This document shows, one piece after another, positions 4,520 to 25,435 of a stretch of 64,000 nt of DNA (the first letter of the stretch is position 1; every line of letters starts with the position of its first letter). The notes beneath the pieces are model-generated. The model saw nothing but the letters and a program-made list of their open reading frames with translations. It did no database searches and had not been told where the DNA came from. Made by a program: the position numbers and the translations under genes. The DNA comes from an uncultured Oscillibacter sp. (GTDB lineage: Bacteria > Bacillota > Clostridia > Oscillospirales > Oscillospiraceae), in NCBI GenBank assembly GCA_945868085.1, contig CAMBKF010000005.1, forward strand, positions 5,507 to 69,506, in the 5' to 3' direction.

Positions 4520-4768
4520 ATGAAAGGAAACATGGAACAGCGGGCCTGCGACGAGGCCGTTTACATCATAGAGAGCCGGGGGACCGTACGGGACGCCGCA
4601 CGGAAGTTCGGCATCAGCAAGTCCACGGTACATAAGGACATTTCCCAGCGGCTGCCCCTGTTCAACCGCTCCCTTTACCTGCAGGTAAAGGCGGTTCTGG
4701 AGGAAAACAAGGCCCAGCGGCACATCCGGGGCGGGCTAGCCACCAGGAGAAAATACAAGGGATGCTGA
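4520..4768 (+). CDS. spoIIID: Sporulation transcriptional regulator SpoIIID
   Basis: TVRDAARKFGISKSTVHKD..RL and NKAQRHIRGGLATRRKY signatures. Confidence 0.95.
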   Translation: MKGNMEQRACDEAVYIIESRGTVRDAARKFGISKSTVHKDISQRLPLFNRSLYLQVKAVLEENKAQRHIRGGLATRRKYKGC

Positions 4769-4770
4769 CA

Positions 4771-4817
4771 AAAAAACACATCCGCCGGGCCTATCGGGCC
4801 GGCGGATGTGCTTATAT
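4771..4817. terminator. Terminator hairpin between convergent spoIIID and DUF1846 genes
   Basis: CACATCCGCCGG / CCGGCGGATGTG stem with an A-run on the left. Confidence 0.7.
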
Positions 4818-6299
4818 TTACTTATGATACAGCTTCTTGACCTCGTATTTCGGCTCGCAGCTGACGTGGATGCCCAGGCGCTTATAGAGCTTCTCATCCT
4901 CCTCGGAGAGGATGACGGAGAAGTGCGCCTCGCTGCCCCGGAGATCGTCCAGCTTCTTCAGCACCCGCTCCGCCAGCGGATTGGTGACGGCGGAAATGGA
5001 CAGGGCGATAAGCACCTCGTCCGAGTGCAGGCGGGGATTATGGTGGCCCAGGTGCCGAAGCTTCATATCGCTGATGGGAGCGATGATGGAGGCGGGCAGC
5101 AGGTCCAGGTCCTTGTCAATGCCCGCCAGGAGCTTGACGGCATTGAGGAGCATGGCCGCGGAGGGGCCCAGGAGCGAGGTGGTCTTGCCGGTGACCATGC
5201 GGCCATCGGGCAGGAGCATAGCAGCGGAGGGCGTGCCCGTCTCGGCAGCCTTATCCAGGGCGGCCTTCACCGCCGGGCAGATATCCGGGGTGACTCCCGC
5301 CTGCTGCATGACGATCTCCAGCTTGCGGACCACGCTGTCATCGCACTTGCCCTTGACACGGTCCACCAGGCCCGTATAGTAGCGGCGGAGGATCTCCATG
5401 CGGCTGGCCGCCTGGCAGGCGGCATCGTCCACAATGGCGAAGCCCGCCATATTCACGCCCATATCCGTGGGGGATCTATAGGGGGATGTGCCCTGGATCT
5501 TCTCAAACATGGCGTTGAGCACGGGGAAGATCTCCACATCCCGGTTATAGTTCACGGTGGTCTTGCCGTAGGCCTCCAGATGGAAGGGGTCGATCATATT
5601 CACATCGTTGAGGTCGGCGGTGGCGGCCTCGTAGGCCAGGTTCACCGGGTGCTTCAGGGGCAGGTTCCAGATGGGGAAGGTCTCGTACTTGGCGTATCCT
5701 GCCCGGACGCCCCGCTTATTCTCATGATAGAGCTGGCTCAGGCAGGTGGCCATTTTGCCGCTGCCGGGGCCGGGCGCCGTGACCACCACGATGGAACGGC
5801 TGGTCTCAATATAGTCGTTCTTGCCCAGGCCGTCGTCGGAGACGATATGGGCCACGTCCGAGGGGTAGCCGGCGATGGGATAGTGCTTATAGCTCTTAAC
5901 GCCCAGGGCGGTCAGGCGCTTGATGAAGGCATCGGCGGCGGGCTGGCCGGCATACTGGGTGATGACCACGGAGCCTACATAAAAGCCCAGGCCCCGGAAC
6001 ACGTCCGTCAGGCGGAGGACATCGTCGTCATAGCTGATGCCCAGGTCGCCGCGCATCTTGCTCTTTTCAATGTCCCCGGCACAGATGGCGATGACGATCT
6101 CCACATCATCCTTCATGGTGGCCAGCATGCGGATCTTGCTGTCGGGCTGGAAGCCGGGCAGCACCCGGGAGGCATGGTAGTCGTCAAAAAGCTTGCCGCC
6201 GAACTCCAGATACAGCTTATCGCCGAACTGGCTGCGGCGCTCCTTGATATGCTCGGCCTGCAGGGCCAAATATTTGTCGTTGTCGAATCCGATCTTCAT
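4818..6299 (-). CDS. DUF1846 (UPF0371) family P-loop protein
   Basis: MKIGFDNDKYL..KLYLEFGGKLFDDYHASRVLPGF and VTAPGPGSGKMATCLSQLYHE. Confidence 0.88.
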   Translation of the reverse strand: MKIGFDNDKYLALQAEHIKERRSQFGDKLYLEFGGKLFDDYHASRVLPGFQPDSKIRMLATMKDDVEIVIAICAGDIEKSKMRGDLGISYDDDVLRLTDVFRGLGFYVGSVVITQYAGQPAADAFIKRLTALGVKSYKHYPIAGYPSDVAHIVSDDGLGKNDYIETSRSIVVVTAPGPGSGKMATCLSQLYHENKRGVRAGYAKYETFPIWNLPLKHPVNLAYEAATADLNDVNMIDPFHLEAYGKTTVNYNRDVEIFPVLNAMFEKIQGTSPYRSPTDMGVNMAGFAIVDDAACQAASRMEILRRYYTGLVDRVKGKCDDSVVRKLEIVMQQAGVTPDICPAVKAALDKAAETGTPSAAMLLPDGRMVTGKTTSLLGPSAAMLLNAVKLLAGIDKDLDLLPASIIAPISDMKLRHLGHHNPRLHSDEVLIALSISAVTNPLAERVLKKLDDLRGSEAHFSVILSEEDEKLYKRLGIHVSCEPKYEVKKLYHK

Positions 6300-6833: not shown

Positions 6834-7244
6834 TTACAGGTAGCTGCGCATGTCCTCGGTGGCCATGGACTCGTCCAGGCTCAGGGTGACGGTGAACTTG
6901 ACGCAGTTCTCCTCGCTGAAGCGATCCAGCCAGTGGAGGAACTTCTCCGCCTCTGCCAGGTCGCTGCTGGCAGCGATCTTGGACAGGTTGTCCACGAACA
7001 CATGGGAAATATCGTAATTGCCGGCGTAGAGGCCGCTGATGAAGCCGCGCAGGCACTCAAAAGAATTCAAGCTATACTCCTTGGCATTGACCAGACGAAC
7101 GCTGGACTTAATGTCAAAGGTCATGTCCGCACCGGGCTCGATGCAGACCACGCTGCCGTTCTCAGACTCCACGGCGCTGTGGATCAGGTCGATGAGCTGC
7201 TTTGTCTTGCCGGCACCGTTTGCACCCATAATCAGTCTAACCAT
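6834..7244 (-). CDS. Small P-loop-like conserved clostridial protein
   Basis: LIMGANGAGKTKQL Walker A-like start, GFISGLYAGNYDI; RBS AAGGAG. Confidence 0.8.
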   Translation of the reverse strand: MVRLIMGANGAGKTKQLIDLIHSAVESENGSVVCIEPGADMTFDIKSSVRLVNAKEYSLNSFECLRGFISGLYAGNYDISHVFVDNLSKIAASSDLAEAEKFLHWLDRFSEENCVKFTVTLSLDESMATEDMRSYL

Positions 7245-7340
7245 AAGAAATCACTCCTTTGTCTTTTTGCGGTTAACTTGCATTTAATATACCATACTTA
7301 TTTCCAAATGGCAATGGAGAAAGCAAAATTCATCAATTCT

Positions 7341-8684
7341 TCACGATTGATTTTCCAGCTTCCCCCGCAGGGCGGCACCCAGGTCTTCATAGCCGGGTTT
7401 GCCCAGGAGGGCAAACATGTTCTTCTTATATGCCTCCACGCCGGGCTGGTCAAAGGGATTCACATCCAGCAGGTAGCCGGACAGGCCGCAGGCGTAGCAG
7501 AAGAAATAGATCAGCTCCCCCAGGGTGAAGGCATTGCGCTCGCCGCAGCACACGCGGATATTGGGAACGCCCCCCTCCACATGGGCCAGGAGCGTGCCGT
7601 CCATGGCCTGCTGCTTCAGGTCGCTCATGGTCTTGCCCGCCAGGAAGTTCAGCCCGTCGCCGTTTTCCGCGTCATAGGGCACCGTCAGCTCCCCGGGGCG
7701 GGGGGCAAAGCGCACCACGGTCTCAAACAGATTGCGGCGGCCCTCCTGGAGATACTGACCCATGGAGTGCAGGTCCGCGGTATACTCCACACTGGCCGGG
7801 AACAGGCCCTTGCCCTCCTTGCCCTCGGACTCGCCGTACAGTTGCTTCCACCACTCCGCCATGAAGCGGAAGAAGGGATCAAAGCAGGCCAGGACTTCGA
7901 TCTCCATGCCCCGGTGCTGCAGCTCATACCGGGCGCCGGCATACTGCCAGGCGGGATTCTGCGCCATATCCGCCTGGGCGCAGACATCCATCATGGACGC
8001 CGCGCCGGCCATGAGCTGCTCCACATCAATGCCCGCTACGGCAATGGGCAGCAGGCCCACCGCCGTGAGGACGCTGTAGCGCCCGCCTATGTCATCGGGC
8101 ACCACGAAGCTCTCATAGCCCTCGGCCGCGGCAAGGGATTTCAATGCGCCCTTCTGCCGGTCGGTGGTGGCGTAGATGCGCTTTGCGGCGGCCTCGTGGC
8201 CGTACTTCTTCTCCAGGAGCTGGCGGAAAAAGCGGAAGGCCACTGCCGGCTCCGTGGTGGTGCCGGACTTGGAGATAACGTTCACGGAGAAGTCTACTCC
8301 CTCCAGCAGTTCCTCCACCTCTGCCAGCTGGTCATTATCCAGGCCGTTGCCCACGAAGTAGATATTGGGCGTTGCCTTCTTTTTCAGGTTATAATTGGGG
8401 GAACAGAGGCACTCGATAACGCCCCGGGCCCCCAAGTAAGAGCCGCCGATGCCGATGACCACCAGGGCCTGGGAATCGGCCTGTATCTTCCGCGCCGCCG
8501 CCTGGATGCGTCCAAACTCCTCCCGGTCGTACTGCTCGGGCAGGCGCACCCAGCCGGTGAACTCGCCCCCGGCGCCGGTGCCGGCGCGCAGGTGGTCATG
8601 GGCCAGGCGCAGACGGGGCGTCAGCGCCGCCTCATAGGGCAGGGGAATAAACTGCCGCATATTGTGAAGATCCACAGAGATCAT
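7341..8684 (-). CDS. pgi: Glucose-6-phosphate isomerase
   Basis: IGIGGSYLG, ISKSGTTTEP, GGRYSV, QLYGESEGK, NPFDQPGVEAYK. Confidence 0.97.
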   Translation of the reverse strand: MISVDLHNMRQFIPLPYEAALTPRLRLAHDHLRAGTGAGGEFTGWVRLPEQYDREEFGRIQAAARKIQADSQALVVIGIGGSYLGARGVIECLCSPNYNLKKKATPNIYFVGNGLDNDQLAEVEELLEGVDFSVNVISKSGTTTEPAVAFRFFRQLLEKKYGHEAAAKRIYATTDRQKGALKSLAAAEGYESFVVPDDIGGRYSVLTAVGLLPIAVAGIDVEQLMAGAASMMDVCAQADMAQNPAWQYAGARYELQHRGMEIEVLACFDPFFRFMAEWWKQLYGESEGKEGKGLFPASVEYTADLHSMGQYLQEGRRNLFETVVRFAPRPGELTVPYDAENGDGLNFLAGKTMSDLKQQAMDGTLLAHVEGGVPNIRVCCGERNAFTLGELIYFFCYACGLSGYLLDVNPFDQPGVEAYKKNMFALLGKPGYEDLGAALRGKLENQS

Positions 8685-21252: not shown

Positions 21253-21281
21253 AGTTTAACAGACTTTAGGAAGCCTGTCAA
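21253..21281 (-). promoter_or_regulatory. Sigma-A promoter of rplU-prp-rpmA
   Basis: TTGACA-N17-TAAACT on the minus strand. Confidence 0.75.
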
Positions 21282-21291
21282 CTGATTTGGG

Positions 21292-21306
21292 GAAGTTTTT
21301 CGGCTT
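21292..21306 (+). repeat. Left target-site duplication (15 bp)
   Basis: GAAGTTTTTCGGCTT, identical to 25421-25435. Confidence 0.92.
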
Positions 21307-21372
21307 TGTTGATTTACACTCTTATTGCAAAGTTCTTTCGAACTAAAAATTAACGAAAAGAGGTATTTCAAC

Positions 21373-21612
21373 ATGAAAATCAAAGTCTGTGGTAAGGCGC
21401 ACCTGGAGGGTGTAGCGAAGAAAACCGGTCGGCCCTACAACTTCAATCAGATTCACTACCTCGGCAAGGCCCGTGGTGTCATCGGCGAAGCGGCCCTGAC
21501 CATCGCCCTGGATCCCGACATCTATCCTATCGAAATGATCGAAGTCGGCAAGGAGTACAACGTTGACTTCGACAATCGTGGCTACGTCTTCGACTTCTCC
21601 CCGGCGAAGTGA
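21373..21612 (+). CDS. Putative ssDNA-binding protein (filamentous phage pV-like), 79 aa
   Basis: GVAKKTGRPYNFNQ resembles the pV DNA-binding wing (M13 GVSRQGKPYSLNEQ); RBS GAGGT; adjacent to origin and rep. Confidence 0.65.
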   Translation: MKIKVCGKAHLEGVAKKTGRPYNFNQIHYLGKARGVIGEAALTIALDPDIYPIEMIEVGKEYNVDFDNRGYVFDFSPAK

Positions 21613-21659
21613 TGGACAAGCCAACTTTCCCATTCCCATTTCCGCGTGTCCCTCCATAG

Positions 21660-21713
21660 CCATAGGGCGGCGCAGCCGCCCTATGGGGCAGGGGGTCAGT
21701 ATTACCCCCCTGC
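21660..21713 (+). other. Rolling-circle double-strand origin: two hairpins, the second with CAGTATTAC in its loop
   Basis: CCATAGGGCGGC-GCA-GCCGCCCTATGG then GCAGGGGG-TCAGTATTAC-CCCCCTGC; nonamer at 21697-21705. Confidence 0.8.
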
Positions 21714-21770
21714 AACTTCTGTGAATCTGTGATTCTTTGACAATGATTTGTCAATCTTTGGAGGTATTTT

Positions 21771-22175
21771 ATGCCACGCTCCCGGAAATGGCTTATCACC
21801 ATCAATAACCCCATTGAGCATGATTTTGACCATGCCCGTATTAAGGCCGCTGTACTTGACTTCCCATCCCTCGTCTACTGGTGTATGTGCGATGAACAGG
21901 GCGATGAATGCGAAACGCTTCATACCCATGTGTATGTTGTTACTCGTGAGGCTACAAGCCACACGCAAATTGACGCTCGTTTCCCCTCGTTCCACCGCGA
22001 CATTGCCCGTGGCAAGTCCTCGGAAAACCGTGCCTACGTCCTCAAGGACGGCGAGAAGTTCAACAAGCAGTCGGACGGCTCCTACTCCTACAAGGACACC
22101 GGCGGCCACCTCCATGAAGGTATCAACTTTTCTTGCCAAAAAGGACATGAAAAAAGGTCGCAAGGTTTGGTCTAA
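21771..22175 (+). pseudogene. rep: CRESS-type HUH rolling-circle Rep, endonuclease domain only (truncated near 22130)
   Basis: Motif I WLITINNP, motif II LHTHVYV, motif III ENRAYVLK; RBS GGAGGT; no helicase domain follows. Confidence 0.82.
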
Positions 22176-22629
22176 CTTCGGCATTACCGGTGCTTATAAA
22201 TGTGAAAAATCCGACTTCGGCAAATACATGATGTCCGATGGCCGTCTTATCATAGATGAAGCTGGCTTGGAATACGATAATCGTAAAATGGCTATGACCA
22301 ACGATGAAATTTATTTCTTCAAATATCATCGTCATTACCAACTGGACGTCGATTTCTTTTCCCAGGGTTTGGACGTTGATATAAAAATTCGTAAGCTTGC
22401 CCGTCATATCTATCTGATTAAGCCCTCTTTGCTCCCGTTCTTTATCAAGAGAAAAGAAATTGGACGTAGAGTAGGTATCAATGATATGACTAAAGAAATA
22501 TGTGATGAATATTTCTTTGTCCCGTTTCTTACTGGTGGTACTAAATTAATATTCTGCCCTCCCCTCTGGAAACTCTTTAATACCCTGGCCCGGAAACCTC
22601 TTCCGGAAAAACACTGGGAAACATGGTGA
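22114..22629 (+). pseudogene. Zot/pI-like morphogenesis ATPase, N-terminally truncated
   Basis: STFLA (Walker A tail), VWSNF, LIIDEAG (Walker B), HRHYQLDVDFFSQ..DIKIRKL; GxxGxGK and TM segment missing. Confidence 0.75.
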
Positions 22630-22702
22630 AGCCCCCGCCGCCTGGCTGGGGCTTTTCCTCTGCCCATAAAAAGCGGAGGATATATGAATATACCCCCCGC
22701 TC
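22629..22702. terminator. Paired terminators between convergent element modules
   Basis: AAGCCCC..GGGGCTTTT and AGCGGAGGATATA..TATACCCCCCGCT hairpins. Confidence 0.55.
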
Positions 22703-22734
22703 TAATTTGCGCTGTTTTTACCCCCGGTAAAAAG

Positions 22735-22935
22735 TTATCCTACGATTTCGTACCCATTGCGTACAAGCCATGCCCGCGCCTGGTGTTCCTGGGCAAAAGT
22801 CCGGCTCTTGCGCTTTTGCCTGTCCCGCCCGGTGATGGCCTGGCCGCTGGCCGCCTGTATCTGATACCGGACTTTATCGTGCTTGATAACGCAGTTATAA
22901 TAGACTGCCTGGCCCTGGCCGTTGATTGCTTTCAT
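22735..22935 (-). CDS. Hypothetical protein (66 aa), element cargo
   Basis: RBS GAGGTG before ATG; co-oriented with the SprT gene. Confidence 0.65.
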   Translation of the reverse strand: MKAINGQGQAVYYNCVIKHDKVRYQIQAASGQAITGRDRQKRKSRTFAQEHQARAWLVRNGYEIVG

Positions 22936-22981
22936 TCGCCCACCTCTTTCGTTCTTTCTCCCCGTCCAGCCGATAGGGCAG

Positions 22982-23002
22982 CTTTTGAATCTACACTTTC
23001 AA
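22982..23002 (+). repeat. 21-bp internal direct repeat, copy 1
   Basis: CTTTTGAATCTACACTTTCAA, identical to 24318-24338. Confidence 0.85.
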
Positions 23003-23181
23003 TTTGTCTCTTTGCACCGTACACGCACGGTGATACTCTCCACATTGGGGTGTGTGAATTGATACGCCTCTATCCATTTTGCAATGTCCTTGAGCGGCAT
23101 TGCCTGGTAGTGCTGAGTTTTGTTGTCTATGCCCGGAAAATAGCACCGGATGCTCATTTGGTATTCTTTCGCCTGTTTCAT
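22999..23181 (-). CDS. Hypothetical protein (60 aa), element cargo
   Basis: ATGA overlap with the SprT stop, RBS GGAGGT; MKQAKEYQMSIRCYFPG.. Confidence 0.65.
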   Translation of the reverse strand: MKQAKEYQMSIRCYFPGIDNKTQHYQAMPLKDIAKWIEAYQFTHPNVESITVRVRCKETN

Positions 23182-23837
23182 TCGGCCACCTCCATTTTCT
23201 CCATGCAGTCCCCACAAATGAGGTTGACCGCCTTGGTGGCCCGGACACTGTTCTTGCAGCACGGACAGATATATTTCCGTGTGCTGCTGCGCTTCGGCGG
23301 CTGTACGCTCCCGCCTGGCTGTGTGCCGCTGTTCCCGGCCTTGCCGCCGCTGCTCGGTGGTGGTGTCCATCCGCCGCCCCGGTTCATTTGGATTTCCGTC
23401 CAGCCCTGCGCAATGATGTAGTCTATAAGTGCTTCGCTCGGTTCCGTCAGCGTCCATCCGTATGTTGGATGATGGGAAATCACCAGGCCCCGCCGCTCTG
23501 CTTCCTCTTTGAATTTCTTGTTGTGGTAGCTGCCGCCCCGGCTGCAATCCTGCACCCCGTGAGCGAGATTGTAGAGGTGTACGGCCTCATGCGTGATGGT
23601 GGCCACCACTTCCTCTATTGGCCTTTGCAGCGTCTCCGCTCCTATGTTCAGTTCATGCCGCTGCTCCCCCTTGCGCTTCCATATCTTGGCCACTGTAACG
23701 TGTCCATAGGCCCGTGGGGTGCTCTGTATGGTGATAATTGGTTCTTCCAGCTCCCCGCCAAACCAATCCGCATTGATTGCCCGGAAAATCTTCTCCAGGT
23801 AGCCCGCTGTCCTGCTGGTCTTGATAGTCTCTTTCAT
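23178..23837 (-). CDS. SprT-like zinc metalloprotease with C-terminal zinc ribbon
   Basis: IN..WFGGEL, HEAVH, YHNKKFK..A, YICPCC..LICGDC; RBS AAGGAG. Confidence 0.82.
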   Translation of the reverse strand: MKETIKTSRTAGYLEKIFRAINADWFGGELEEPIITIQSTPRAYGHVTVAKIWKRKGEQRHELNIGAETLQRPIEEVVATITHEAVHLYNLAHGVQDCSRGGSYHNKKFKEEAERRGLVISHHPTYGWTLTEPSEALIDYIIAQGWTEIQMNRGGGWTPPPSSGGKAGNSGTQPGGSVQPPKRSSTRKYICPCCKNSVRATKAVNLICGDCMEKMEVAE

Positions 23838-23899
23838 GTTCTGTTCTCCTTTACCCCGCTAAAGCGGATTTTGTCTTTAGATTTGAACCCTGAGCCCCT

Positions 23900-24056
23900 A
23901 TGTCGGATTTGACTTTTTACCTCCTTTGCTATAATTTTTAGGGTGATGGGCGTAAACCGAAGGGAAAATCTTCCCCCGCGATTTTGCCTTTGAGTTTTCG
24001 CCCGTCGCCCATTAAGAAAATTTTTGCAAAGGAGGTAAAAAGTCATATTCCGACAT
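23900..24056. other. Long imperfect hairpin (about 70-bp arms) in the element's non-coding region
   Basis: ATGTCGGA..TGACTTTTTACCTCCTTTGC.. pairs with ..GCAAAGGAGGTAAAAAGTCA..TCCGACAT. Confidence 0.8.
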
Positions 24057-24317
24057 TGGTCGTTAGACCAATACCTCGGGTGGAACCGTATATTAAGTTT
24101 TTGCCGTCCCCCGCAAGGCAAAAAGTTAATATGCGAAAGTCCACCCATCCCAGCGCAGCAGCGCTGTGCCTGTTCCCGTCCCGCCGCAGCGATAACCCTC
24201 GTCCCTCGTCTCCGCAGCAGCGGACAACAGGCACTTGCGCTATGCGGAAAAGTATGGTATCATGGCAAAAACAAACGCCAAGGCAGAAATGCCCCGGCGT
24301 TTGCTGCATTTTATGGC

Positions 24318-24338
24318 CTTTTGAATCTACACTTTCAA
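24318..24338 (+). repeat. 21-bp internal direct repeat, copy 2, abutting the transposase RBS
   Basis: CTTTTGAATCTACACTTTCAA followed by AGGAAAACAGCC-ATG. Confidence 0.85.
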
Positions 24339-24350
24339 AGGAAAACAGCC

Positions 24351-25379
24351 ATGAAGAAATACCGCCGTATAGACTGGAATGACCGCTTGCTCATTGAAAA
24401 GCTCTATAATCACGGTCAAAACTGCTCCAGCATAGCGCATGTTCTCGGTTTCTCTCCCTCCTCCATCTACCGTGAAATAAAGCATGGCCTGTACCCGCAC
24501 CTGGGCGCAGAAACCACCCGGCGACCATTTCATTACTCTGCGCAAATCGCCCAGGACCACGCCGATTACCACGCCACCTCAAAAGGCACACAAATAAAGC
24601 TGGGCAACAACTACGGCTTCGCCGCAGATGTTGCCCAGCAAGTCAAGCATGGCATCTCTATTGATGTAATTGTAAACCAAAAGAAGCAGGCCAAACAGTG
24701 GACAGTCAGCACTACCACTCTATATCGCTACATAGATCGCGGCTATATCCCCGGCGTTACCAATAAGCACCTCCCGGAAAAGCCCCGCCGCAAGCATCGC
24801 AAGCCCGGCATGGTAAAGGCCACTCGGGCACCGAAAGGGCTCCCCATAGACCGCCGCCCGGCCCACATAAACCGCCGCTTGTCCTTTGGCCATTGGGAAA
24901 TGGACAGTGTCATAGGCACCGCAGAAGGCAAGCGGCAATCCCTCCTTGTCCTCACCGAACGCCTTACCCGTTTTGAAATCATCTTCAGAGCCAGCAGCAA
25001 GACCGCAGCAGCCACCACTAAGGCCCTAGATAGAATCATTCCTCAATTCCCGCAATGTACATTCCAAACGATAACCGTGGACAATGGCAGCGAATTCCAG
25101 GACTGTCATGGTATGGAGCATGATAAGCAAGGCAACCAGCGTCTGACCGTCTATTACTGCCATCCTTATTCCTCCTGTGAGCGTGGCAGCAATGAGCGCA
25201 ATAACCGAATCATTCGCCGTTACTTCCCCAAAGGCAGGAGCATGGCGAAAGTCACACAAAAGGACTGCGACAAAGCCGCAGCCCTCATAAACGCCATGCC
25301 CCGAAAAATCCTCAATTACCAATCCGCTGCTGACCTATTTAATCGAGAAATCGAAAACTTGCTCAAAAATCAAAAGTGA
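24351..25379 (+). CDS. IS30-family DDE transposase
   Basis: N-terminal HTH (IA..LG..PSSIYREIK), TTLYRYI, I..RP, GHWEMDSVIG, TITVDNGSEF, YYCHPYSSCERGSNE..N..IRR..PKG. Confidence 0.95.
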   Translation: MKKYRRIDWNDRLLIEKLYNHGQNCSSIAHVLGFSPSSIYREIKHGLYPHLGAETTRRPFHYSAQIAQDHADYHATSKGTQIKLGNNYGFAADVAQQVKHGISIDVIVNQKKQAKQWTVSTTTLYRYIDRGYIPGVTNKHLPEKPRRKHRKPGMVKATRAPKGLPIDRRPAHINRRLSFGHWEMDSVIGTAEGKRQSLLVLTERLTRFEIIFRASSKTAAATTKALDRIIPQFPQCTFQTITVDNGSEFQDCHGMEHDKQGNQRLTVYYCHPYSSCERGSNERNNRIIRRYFPKGRSMAKVTQKDCDKAAALINAMPRKILNYQSAADLFNREIENLLKNQK

Positions 25380-25420
25380 TATTCTTACGAAACTTTTTGC
25401 AATGGACTTGACAATCTACA

Positions 25421-25435
25421 GAAGTTTTTCGGCTT
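25421..25435 (+). repeat. Right target-site duplication (15 bp)
   Basis: GAAGTTTTTCGGCTT; overlaps the luxS stop codon. Confidence 0.92.

Follow-up and report, generated by a model that had tools for sequence, protein, structure and literature searches.

The DNA analysed here (the window) is a stretch of 64,000 nucleotides from an uncultured Oscillibacter sp. (GenBank assembly GCA_945868085.1, contig CAMBKF010000005.1, positions 5,507 to 69,506 of the forward strand); the host assembly (G000) is 1.96 Mb long and 84.5% complete. Between rplU, named by TIGR00061, and luxS lies a 4,114-bp element (21307-25420) with filamentous-phage-like genes, the ends of an IS30 insertion sequence (IS) and one IS30-family transposase. 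Its G+C content is 50.6%, against 59.7% for the genome. The terminal inverted repeats (IRL, left, and IRR, right) are imperfect, with 16 of 24 positions identical, and an exact 15-bp direct repeat (21292-21306 and 25421-25435) with no further copies in the assembly (n = 2) surrounds the element, as an initial annotation of the window had described. Judged by its relatives, the element is an internally deleted, defective member of a widespread inovirus-like prophage family of gut Clostridia. Its features are listed in Table 1.

Table 1. Features of the element and its borders, in window coordinates (aa, amino acids; ORF, open reading frame; ssDNA, single-stranded DNA).
Feature	Coordinates	Strand	Remarks
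Host rplU promoter-like site	21253..21281	-	-35 TTGACA (21281-21276), 17-nt spacer, -10 TAAACT (21258-21253); 10/12 consensus
Target-site duplication, left copy	21292..21306	+	Exact repeat; relatives have empty alleles
IRL	21307..21330	+	Contains -10-like hexamer TACACT at 21315-21320, 8 nt from tip
pV-like ssDNA-binding protein, 79 aa	21373..21612	+	Function suggested by weak RstB-family match and position
Two hairpins	21660..21713	+	Second (21688-21713) has CAGTATTAC (21697-21705) in loop
CRESS-type HUH Rep, 5' part (about 121 codons)	21771..22133	+	SF3 helicase half deleted; ORF continues out of frame to 22175
Internal deletion joint	22131..22133	+	2-3 nt microhomology
pI/Zot-like assembly ATPase gene, 3' remnant	22131..22629	+	First ~25 residues including Walker A absent
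Conserved 66-aa ORF, no assigned function	22735..22935	-	
Palindromic motif TTGAA-N8-TTCAA, copy 1	22985..23002	+	Element-specific
Conserved 65-aa ORF, no assigned function	22999..23196	-	
SprT-like metalloprotease gene, 219 aa, accessory	23178..23837	-	Pfam SprT-like E = 4e-5 (below cut-off); PHROG 6361 E = 5e-25
Palindromic motif TTGAA-N8-TTCAA, copy 2	24321..24338	+	Directly upstream of transposase ribosome-binding site
IS30-family DDE transposase, 342 aa, intact	24351..25379	+	Directed toward right end
IRR	25397..25420	+	Contains outward-reading -35 hexamer TTGACA at 25408-25413, 7 nt from tip
Target-site duplication, right copy	25421..25435	+	Overlaps luxS stop codon region

The flanking genes, but not the element, had matches in 21 of 24 genus relatives; in several, rplU directly adjoins luxS or mtnN with no insert, and run X6 contains the empty rplU-luxS allele of a close relative. 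The promoter motif of rplU, whose -35 box stops 10 bp short of the duplicated target, is kept in the genus relatives. In five of them (G001, G002, G004, G021 and G024) luxS is inverted and lies several kb from rplU.

The pV-like reading frame was matched weakly by Pfam CTX_RstB (E = 0.002, below cut-off) and by PHROG 929 at E = 8e-8, in line with the ssDNA-binding protein of the initial annotation; all 22 two-ended relatives (described below) begin with the pV gene, by which their left end was also located. The stem-loop with CAGTATTAC had a z-score of -5.8, equalled in none of 200 shuffles, and the motif-in-stem arrangement was found in 22 of 22 relatives; this hairpin, previously put forward as a nick site, is likely to be where rolling-circle replication starts. 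The Rep reading frame was matched by Viral_Rep (E = 2e-8). The pI remnant is 92% identical to full-length relatives of 190 amino acids and was matched by Zot (E = 1e-4, above cut-off), so that the pI/Zot similarity claimed for the protein at 22114-22629 holds. The transposase was matched by the NCBIfam IS30 model NF033563 at 228 bits (cut-off 80) and has the catalytic motifs WEMD/TVDNG/RGSNE; its AlphaFold model (pLDDT 76.8, pTM 0.54) has a predicted DDE fold, confirmed by Foldseek. Model and Foldseek gave no clue to targeting, and alignment with two passenger IS30s revealed no clean clade-specific domain. We infer that the enzyme serves as the integrase.

The Rep proteins of full-length relatives have 339-346 amino acids, CRESS-type HUH motifs and an SF3 helicase, are about 90% identical to the window Rep over the shared part, and as a profile matched solved CRESS-type Reps (7lar, E = 6e-17). 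In the window the match ends at about residue 121 of ~341, after which the gene runs out of frame into pI DNA. Full-length elements have about 4.8-5.5 kb extra at the deletion joint, and the region lost from the window comprises the helicase half of Rep, a large pIII-like gene, several hydrophobic ORFs of 57-62 amino acids, one or two of them coat-like, and the start of pI with Walker A. The coat candidates of relative L106, deleted from the window copy, are proteins of 57-62 amino acids with a hydropathy of 2.3-2.6. Full-length pI was matched by Zot at E = 5e-6 (above cut-off), includes Walker A, and matches 68 phage records, mostly inoviruses by name; a hydrophobic segment was not found in pI (maximum 19-residue hydropathy, 1.16). 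The coat-like gene is often tandem-duplicated (two paralogues of 57-59 amino acids; L034, and L106 at 6981-7372) and is single in some members.

Because its Rep lacks the helicase half, the window copy is not an autonomous replicon, which amends the initial annotation's reading of this Rep as replicase; the truncation of Rep and its out-of-frame fusion to pI, like the SprT-like gene and two small ORFs on the minus strand, are additions to that annotation. The prophage origin stands, and the window copy is an internal-deletion derivative. Since the ends, transposase, pV and origin are kept, and the Rep helicase half, coat genes and pI Walker A are lost, this copy could probably excise and would need a helper for replication or packaging. 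The family itself is large (its Rep clusters contain 453, 710 and 1,023 sequences), and most of the relatives with a name come from Clostridia of the gut, Oscillospiraceae among them; both ends are present in the named isolates L219, L260 and L245. A scan of IMG/VR with the N-terminal part of Rep gave no confirmed match.

A metagenome scan with the transposase yielded 80 loci, 60 of which (L106-L165) have a transposase 44-90% identical to that of the window. Both ends were present at 22 of the 60 loci, and at the tips of the inverted repeats a perfect 15-bp duplication was found in 19 and a 14-bp duplication in two (L112 and L128); the 20 duplications counted were each of a different sequence. 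The two-ended elements are 7.7-10.3 kb long, save two short forms (L111, 5.85 kb, and L115, 2.36 kb), and lengths over all sets range from 2.4 to 10.6 kb. Their inverted repeats have tips of CC, GG or TT, where the window has TG; IRL stands constantly at the far, pV end; and in full-length elements the repeats enclose pV, coat-like genes, pI, one IS30 transposase and a Rep that includes the SF3 helicase. Five of 14 genome stretches around pI matches had the same ends and duplication, with transposases 34-57% identical and the gene reversed in three. Altogether the same ends enclose three Rep types (Viral_Rep plus helicase, ORF2/G2P and Rep_trans). In runs X1 and X5, contigs skip the entire L106 element and a single 15-mer remains. 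A solo IS was seen at none of 49 loci (those with the right end and at least 600 nucleotides upstream of the transposase), none having a duplicated flank nearby. A 21-bp internal repeat considered as the left end of a solo IS was rejected, being a palindrome that occurs 1-7 times per element without a duplicated flank.

These comparisons support the whole segment, filamentous-phage-like and prophage-derived, as the transposing unit. The initial annotation had arrived at the same unit and the same origin, and had tied its reading to the absence of a solo IS, to the pI/Zot similarity and to the existence of empty sites, all of which were found (the empty alleles in X6, X1 and X5), as were longer elements with the same ends, both in metagenome and in genome loci.

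Several loci depart from this plan. At L112 (928-2287) two different IS30-bounded elements stand in tandem, the second against the right end of the first, one site being reused. Some pI relatives lacking an IS30 gene adjoin a tyrosine recombinase or another rve-type DDE enzyme (L201, 12134-13249; L203, 11097-12101; L104, 12397-13359), and integration modules can be exchanged within this group of inoviruses; direct repeats around five pI relatives without IS30 gave no consistent ends. Among the IS30 phage loci of forty-odd kb (L037-L073 and L166-L185) the end finder gave a duplication for L177 only, because the left ends of these loci lie beyond the 10-kb flank.

Outside the left end the order, reading outward, is the duplication, about 10 nucleotides, a -35-like hexamer, 16-18 nucleotides and a -10-like hexamer, and the promoter-like sites point away from the element. 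Flanks were scored against TTGACA/TATAAT, and were passed at a score of at least 9/12 with the -35 starting 24-28 nucleotides outside the tip. In a first set of 28 (the 22 metagenome loci, the window and five genome loci), 22 left flanks and no right flanks passed; shuffled flanks passed at a mean of 0.29 and a maximum of 3 (2,000 shuffles). The background pass rate was 0.36% at random genome positions, 2.1% at AT-rich positions and 1.2% at positions upstream of, and facing, a gene. A held-out set was drawn from a GTDB scan with the pI alignment (78 loci), in which a promoter-blind end finder gave repeats in 19; after five duplicates of the first set and two loci without transposase (L238 and L239) were dropped, 12 remained. 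Here 9 of 12 left flanks passed (11 reached a score of 8/12), the right flanks again gave none (0/12), and shuffled flanks passed at a mean of 0.14 and a maximum of 4. When offsets of 10-45 were permitted, a match of at least 9 was found in 24 flanks, 21 of them at 24-27.

The genes downstream of these sites, named from 19 flank ORFs of which two had no match, are housekeeping genes: infC, typA, ylxM, recJ, asnS, rpsF, deoC, smc (twice), yajC, rpsB and rplU; six tRNAs are present among 38 flanks. The structurally complete element L109 is inserted at the very nucleotide used in the window, with flanks 91% identical. Since its transposase gene is 97-98% identical to those of elements at other sites and 82% identical to that of the window, L109 is most simply read as an independent insertion at the same nucleotide. 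An element of the reversed-transposase subgroup (L098/L218) also lies upstream of rplU in another genus, and smc is targeted in two genera (L196 and L220). In a related, tailed-phage-like group, 11 IMG/VR matches to the left-end motif resolved into four junctions and seven host flanks, five of which passed; the sole annotated member, L168, has tail, reverse-transcriptase and amidase genes. Its reverse transcriptase (4613-5710) lies beside the tail genes and may belong to a diversity-generating retroelement.

A -35 box lies at about -36 to -31, and the duplicated target therefore falls at about -61 to -47, so that insertion would leave the core promoter untouched. The sites as a whole suggest that the family inserts at a fixed distance and in a fixed orientation upstream of sigma-A-type promoters, with the genes unbroken. 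The initial annotation held the core idea of a transposing filamentous prophage and missed both this promoter-directed insertion and the promoter predicted at the joined ends.

TTGACA lies 7 nucleotides inside the right tip, and TACAAT or TACACT 8 nucleotides inside the left tip, in all of the elements compared (23/23), so that a 2-nucleotide spacer between joined ends would make a promoter spacing of 17 bp. This 17-bp junction promoter was predicted before any junction sequence had been seen. In the held-out set the two tip distances sum to 15 in 9 of 11 measurable elements, in splits of 7+8, 6+9, 5+10 and 8+7; two elements sum to 14, probably through an ambiguous register. A 7,295-bp contig of run X7 joins the IRR tip to IRL with 2 nucleotides between them, consistent on the window; compared with L106, this contig could be a non-integrating episomal variant. 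Eight distinct contigs of the tailed-phage-like group all have a 2-nucleotide spacer (0-6 permitted), and the circular Inovirus records PQ006184 and PQ006121, together with Lagaffe and nd12, read 6+2+9 or 5+2+10 (register set by eye). In the integrated state, the match to a -35 at the corresponding position is at most 3/6 in 24 of 27. The joined ends would thus form a promoter for the replication genes pV and Rep and switch them on.

Other features of the element touch on its regulation. The palindrome TTGAA-N8-TTCAA, with a conserved middle, recurs in all 22 relatives, each element having 1-7 copies (in L106 at 2994, 3701, 4019, 4930, 7422 and 8616), sometimes just 5' of a ribosome-binding site (pI, transposase); its two matches in the whole host assembly are both inside the element. 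It is likely to be an operator or a ssDNA or RNA hairpin signal. Between the start of the SprT-like gene and the transposase are a 32-nucleotide inverted repeat (91% identity, arms 78 nucleotides apart; 23907-23938 and 24017-24048) and a 19-bp hairpin within 24087-24135, possibly a divergent control region or a packaging or minus-strand origin. Many group members have the SprT-like gene, which occurs in two divergent forms (identity to the window gene about 54% in one and about 90% in the other) and is truncated or absent in some relatives; we can only speculate that the protease acts as an anti-repressor or in the removal of a DNA-linked protein. In RNA runs X8 and X9, 5-6% of words were present.

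Comparison among relatives established that the ends bound the whole prophage, that each site has its own 15-bp duplication, that the promoter geometry is fixed and that the junctions have 2-nucleotide spacers. From these we regard it as very probable that the segment is an internally deleted copy of a prophage family that has IS30-type ends, occupies sites about 10 bp upstream of the -35 box of sigma-A-type promoters, duplicates 15 bp there and likely integrates by its own transposase. In the cycle we propose, the transposase would join IRR to IRL via the copy-out route of IS30, bringing the -35 of IRR and the -10 of IRL to a spacing of 17 bp, from which pV and Rep would be transcribed. Rep would then cut the CAGTATTAC hairpin and the circle would be copied by rolling circle; export of the ssDNA as filaments would fall to pV, the coat proteins and pI. 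On reaching another cell, the double-stranded form of the circle would integrate through its junction at a cut staggered by 15 bp. The site would lie immediately 5' of a housekeeping promoter, with sigma-A RNA polymerase bound there as the most likely guide, and the core promoter and the gene would stay intact.

A number of points weigh against this account. Promoters, transposition and particles are predictions from sequence, the promoters being consensus matches; the offset window was picked on the first set; and the elements counted are related, so that they are not independent events. Left flanks fell below threshold in 6 of 28 and 3 of 12: at L098, L128 and L212 the promoter lies 10-12 nucleotides further out, L117, L124, L157, L205 and L245 score 7-8, and L112 abuts the right end of another element, consistent with two insertions at one site. 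L124 is also without a duplication. The X7 contig, the sole junction contig of the subgroup, lacks 723 bp including the transposase start, and as a unitig it fits a free circle or a tandem dimer alike. Two scans of IMG/VR for the junction pattern gave no match traced to this subgroup (the single match of the first, in a giant-virus bin, was taken as chance, and the eight of the second were not used), and the host assembly, 84.5% complete, yielded neither a helper nor a second copy.

As to how the target is recognized, contact with promoter-bound sigma-A polymerase is favoured over direct reading of the DNA, because both boxes are conserved and the target is not, and because the three outliers lie about one helical turn away. 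The widest form of this idea, to which we give an even chance, is a phage-domesticated IS30 clade recruited by promoter-bound sigma-A polymerase, which would insert whole filamentous and tailed phage genomes on one helix face upstream of housekeeping and tRNA promoters and whose joined ends would start the phage cycle. The transposase might instead read the promoter DNA itself (a -35-like TTGACA or TTGCA plus an AT-rich bend) with no contact to RNA polymerase: IS30 prefers targets resembling its own ends, and IRR itself has TTGACA. An inverted-repeat target site was moreover expected in the text of Cornuault et al. (2018; PMC5883640). The -35 of the target, however, reads opposite to the IRR hexamer relative to the cut and stands 10 bp beyond a 15-bp sequence without consensus, it is often degenerate (TTGCA, TTGAA or TTTACA), the -10 is conserved as well, and the outliers are displaced by about one helical turn; we regard direct reading as possible and rather unlikely.

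A further question concerns the window copy, which could represent a stable, helper-dependent satellite lineage and not a one-off deletion in this chromosome. Its ends, origin, pV and transposase are intact, and the short forms L111 and L115 have duplications of their own; against this, breakpoints differ among the three short forms, the deletion joint of the window is not among the joints listed for four runs, and the structurally complete L109 occupies the same site. A satellite lineage thus seems improbable, and a single deletion within the prophage family remains our reading.

Selection could in principle imitate targeting if insertion were untargeted and only copies sparing genes and promoters survived, all sites having come from surviving genomes; intergenic DNA is also rich in promoters, 42% of 818 upstream regions holding a match of at least 9/12 somewhere. 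Survival would not, however, fix the distance within 2-3 nucleotides (21 of 24 at 24-27) or the orientation (0 of 40 right flanks). The matched background is 1.2%, the same nucleotide was struck twice independently (L109), and we consider selection very improbable beside directed insertion. That an ordinary IS30 merely inserted into the remains of an inovirus or pCRESS plasmid, with the 15-bp repeat as an att core or chance, has next to no probability: selfish and domesticated inovirus transposases are indistinguishable by sequence in the text of Roux et al. (2019; PMC6813254) and some pI relatives do without IS30, beside a tyrosine recombinase or other DDE enzyme, but solo copies are absent from the 49 loci, the 20 duplications share no sequence as an att core would, IRL keeps to the pV end, and a true passenger, in phage phiPV83, is 1,070 bp long with annotated 4-nucleotide repeats.

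Phages that integrate through IS30 are already known (Vespertiliovirus, Lagaffe and IScream), as are promoter-targeting Mutator transposons. What appears to be new is promoter-directed, oriented insertion with a 15-bp duplication at the level of a family, together with a promoter built on excision, both common to tailed IS30 phages; the literature searched, which excluded most subscription papers, described neither IS30-bounded inoviruses with a duplication nor promoter targeting by IS30. If true, promoter targeting in an IS30 clade serving phages of two realms would be convergent with that of Mutator-like transposases, would provide phages with an integration route independent of a fixed attachment (attB) site, and would explain the broad host ranges of the IScream type and many unexplained direct repeats of gut inovirus prophages. 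Being common, the family may account for much of the filamentous virome of the gut. An enzyme that on its own inserts 8-10 kb in front of promoters, with genes uncut, is also a candidate tool for gut Clostridia and, if the reading is true, a one-protein safe-harbour integrator for them.

The IScream phages (Wirbel et al., 2025; PMC12823448) likewise infect gut Clostridia and substitute an IS30 transposase, encoded at the prophage end, for an integrase. They exceed 10 kb and are defined by co-opted IS30 genes at both ends, whereas the present family has one transposase per element; their main text never mentions inoviruses, filaments, promoters, target sites, or direct or inverted repeats, and the base-level mechanics given here (ends, 15-bp duplication, junction and target) go beyond it. 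In a midpoint-rooted tree without ISfinder outgroup, the transposases of tailed gut phages, 34-42% identical to that of the window, are intermixed with those of pI-bearing elements. Faecalibacterium phage Lagaffe has, according to the text of Cornuault et al. (2018; PMC5883640), an IS30 integrase and flanking direct repeats; its transposase is 38% identical and its end junction is of the same kind, but it is a tailed double-stranded DNA phage and the window family is filamentous-phage-like. Vespertiliovirus (Plectroviridae, of Spiroplasma) comprises filamentous ssDNA phages with IS3/IS30 transposases that, in the texts of PMC6668415 and PMC13595969, have no Rep and replicate by transposition; the window family, in contrast, keeps a separate Rep and a nick-site hairpin. 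A 15-kb element packaged in virus-like particles, with a partial IS30, 15-bp repeats and a mechanism left unresolved in the preprint text (bioRxiv 2026.07.08.737213), may be related to the window family.

Among the inovirus protein families of Roux et al. (2019; PMC6813254) are one of IS21/IS3/IS30 transposases (iPF_00107, 157 sequences) and one combining Viral_Rep with a helicase (iPF_00203, 56 sequences). The text leaves domestication of the transposases open and records 738 + 994 prophages with unexplained flanking direct repeats; ends, duplication or a target rule were not found in that text. The present comparison would settle its question of domesticated versus passenger transposases for one abundant family. 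Full-length relatives have two of the features by which inoviruses (Tubulavirales) are recognized there, a pI-like ATPase and short coat candidates with one transmembrane segment. The pairing of IS30 with a CRESS-type Rep, for which the initial annotation knew no example, is already present in the circular GenBank records PQ006184 and PQ006121 (bajarodino viruses 13 and 74; Inovirus with Zot), whose Rep is 43-46% and whose IS30-type transposase is 35-36% identical. Rep types can also replace one another; a literature search found no paper naming "bajarodino". These records are of more distant relatives, and within the family a circular form may be represented by the end-joined X7 contig.

The CAGTATTAC hairpin resembles the circovirus-type nonanucleotide stem-loop origin of CRESS replicons. 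The Reps of pCRESS plasmids and CRESS-DNA viruses also combine a HUH nuclease with an SF3 helicase (Kazlauskas et al., 2019; PMC6668415), but in the window family the Rep sits in an inovirus-like genome and can be swapped for an ORF2/G2P-type Rep or Rep_trans. Promoter-targeted insertion is described in the text of Guerillot et al. (2014; PMC3942029) for the Mutator-like elements TnGBS, ISLre2 and ISKra4, which differ in their unrelated p-MULT transposase, in a distance of 15-17 bp from the -35 (about 25 bp from the tip here), in the IR-right facing the promoter, and in being ISs and conjugative elements, not phages.

The junction of the window family resembles that of ISs that move by copy-out/paste-in (IS30, IS2 and IS911), in which the circle junction creates a promoter. 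IS30 itself is a compact element of about 1.1 kb with a 2-3-bp duplication and a 2-bp junction spacer. Its two-step pathway via a transposase-made circle and the 17-bp promoter Pjunc of the IS2 circle junction are described in the text of PMC3299598. The family fits this pattern in its helix-turn-helix and DDE model match, its imperfect terminal inverted repeats and its 2-nucleotide spacer with a predicted promoter. It departs from it in lengths of 2.4-10.6 kb, in the lack of solo copies, in a duplication of about 15 bp (4 nucleotides for IS30 in phiPV83), far longer than the spacer, and in a predicted junction promoter that faces the phage genes pV and Rep and not the transposase. The element works like IS30 and is not a simple IS30.

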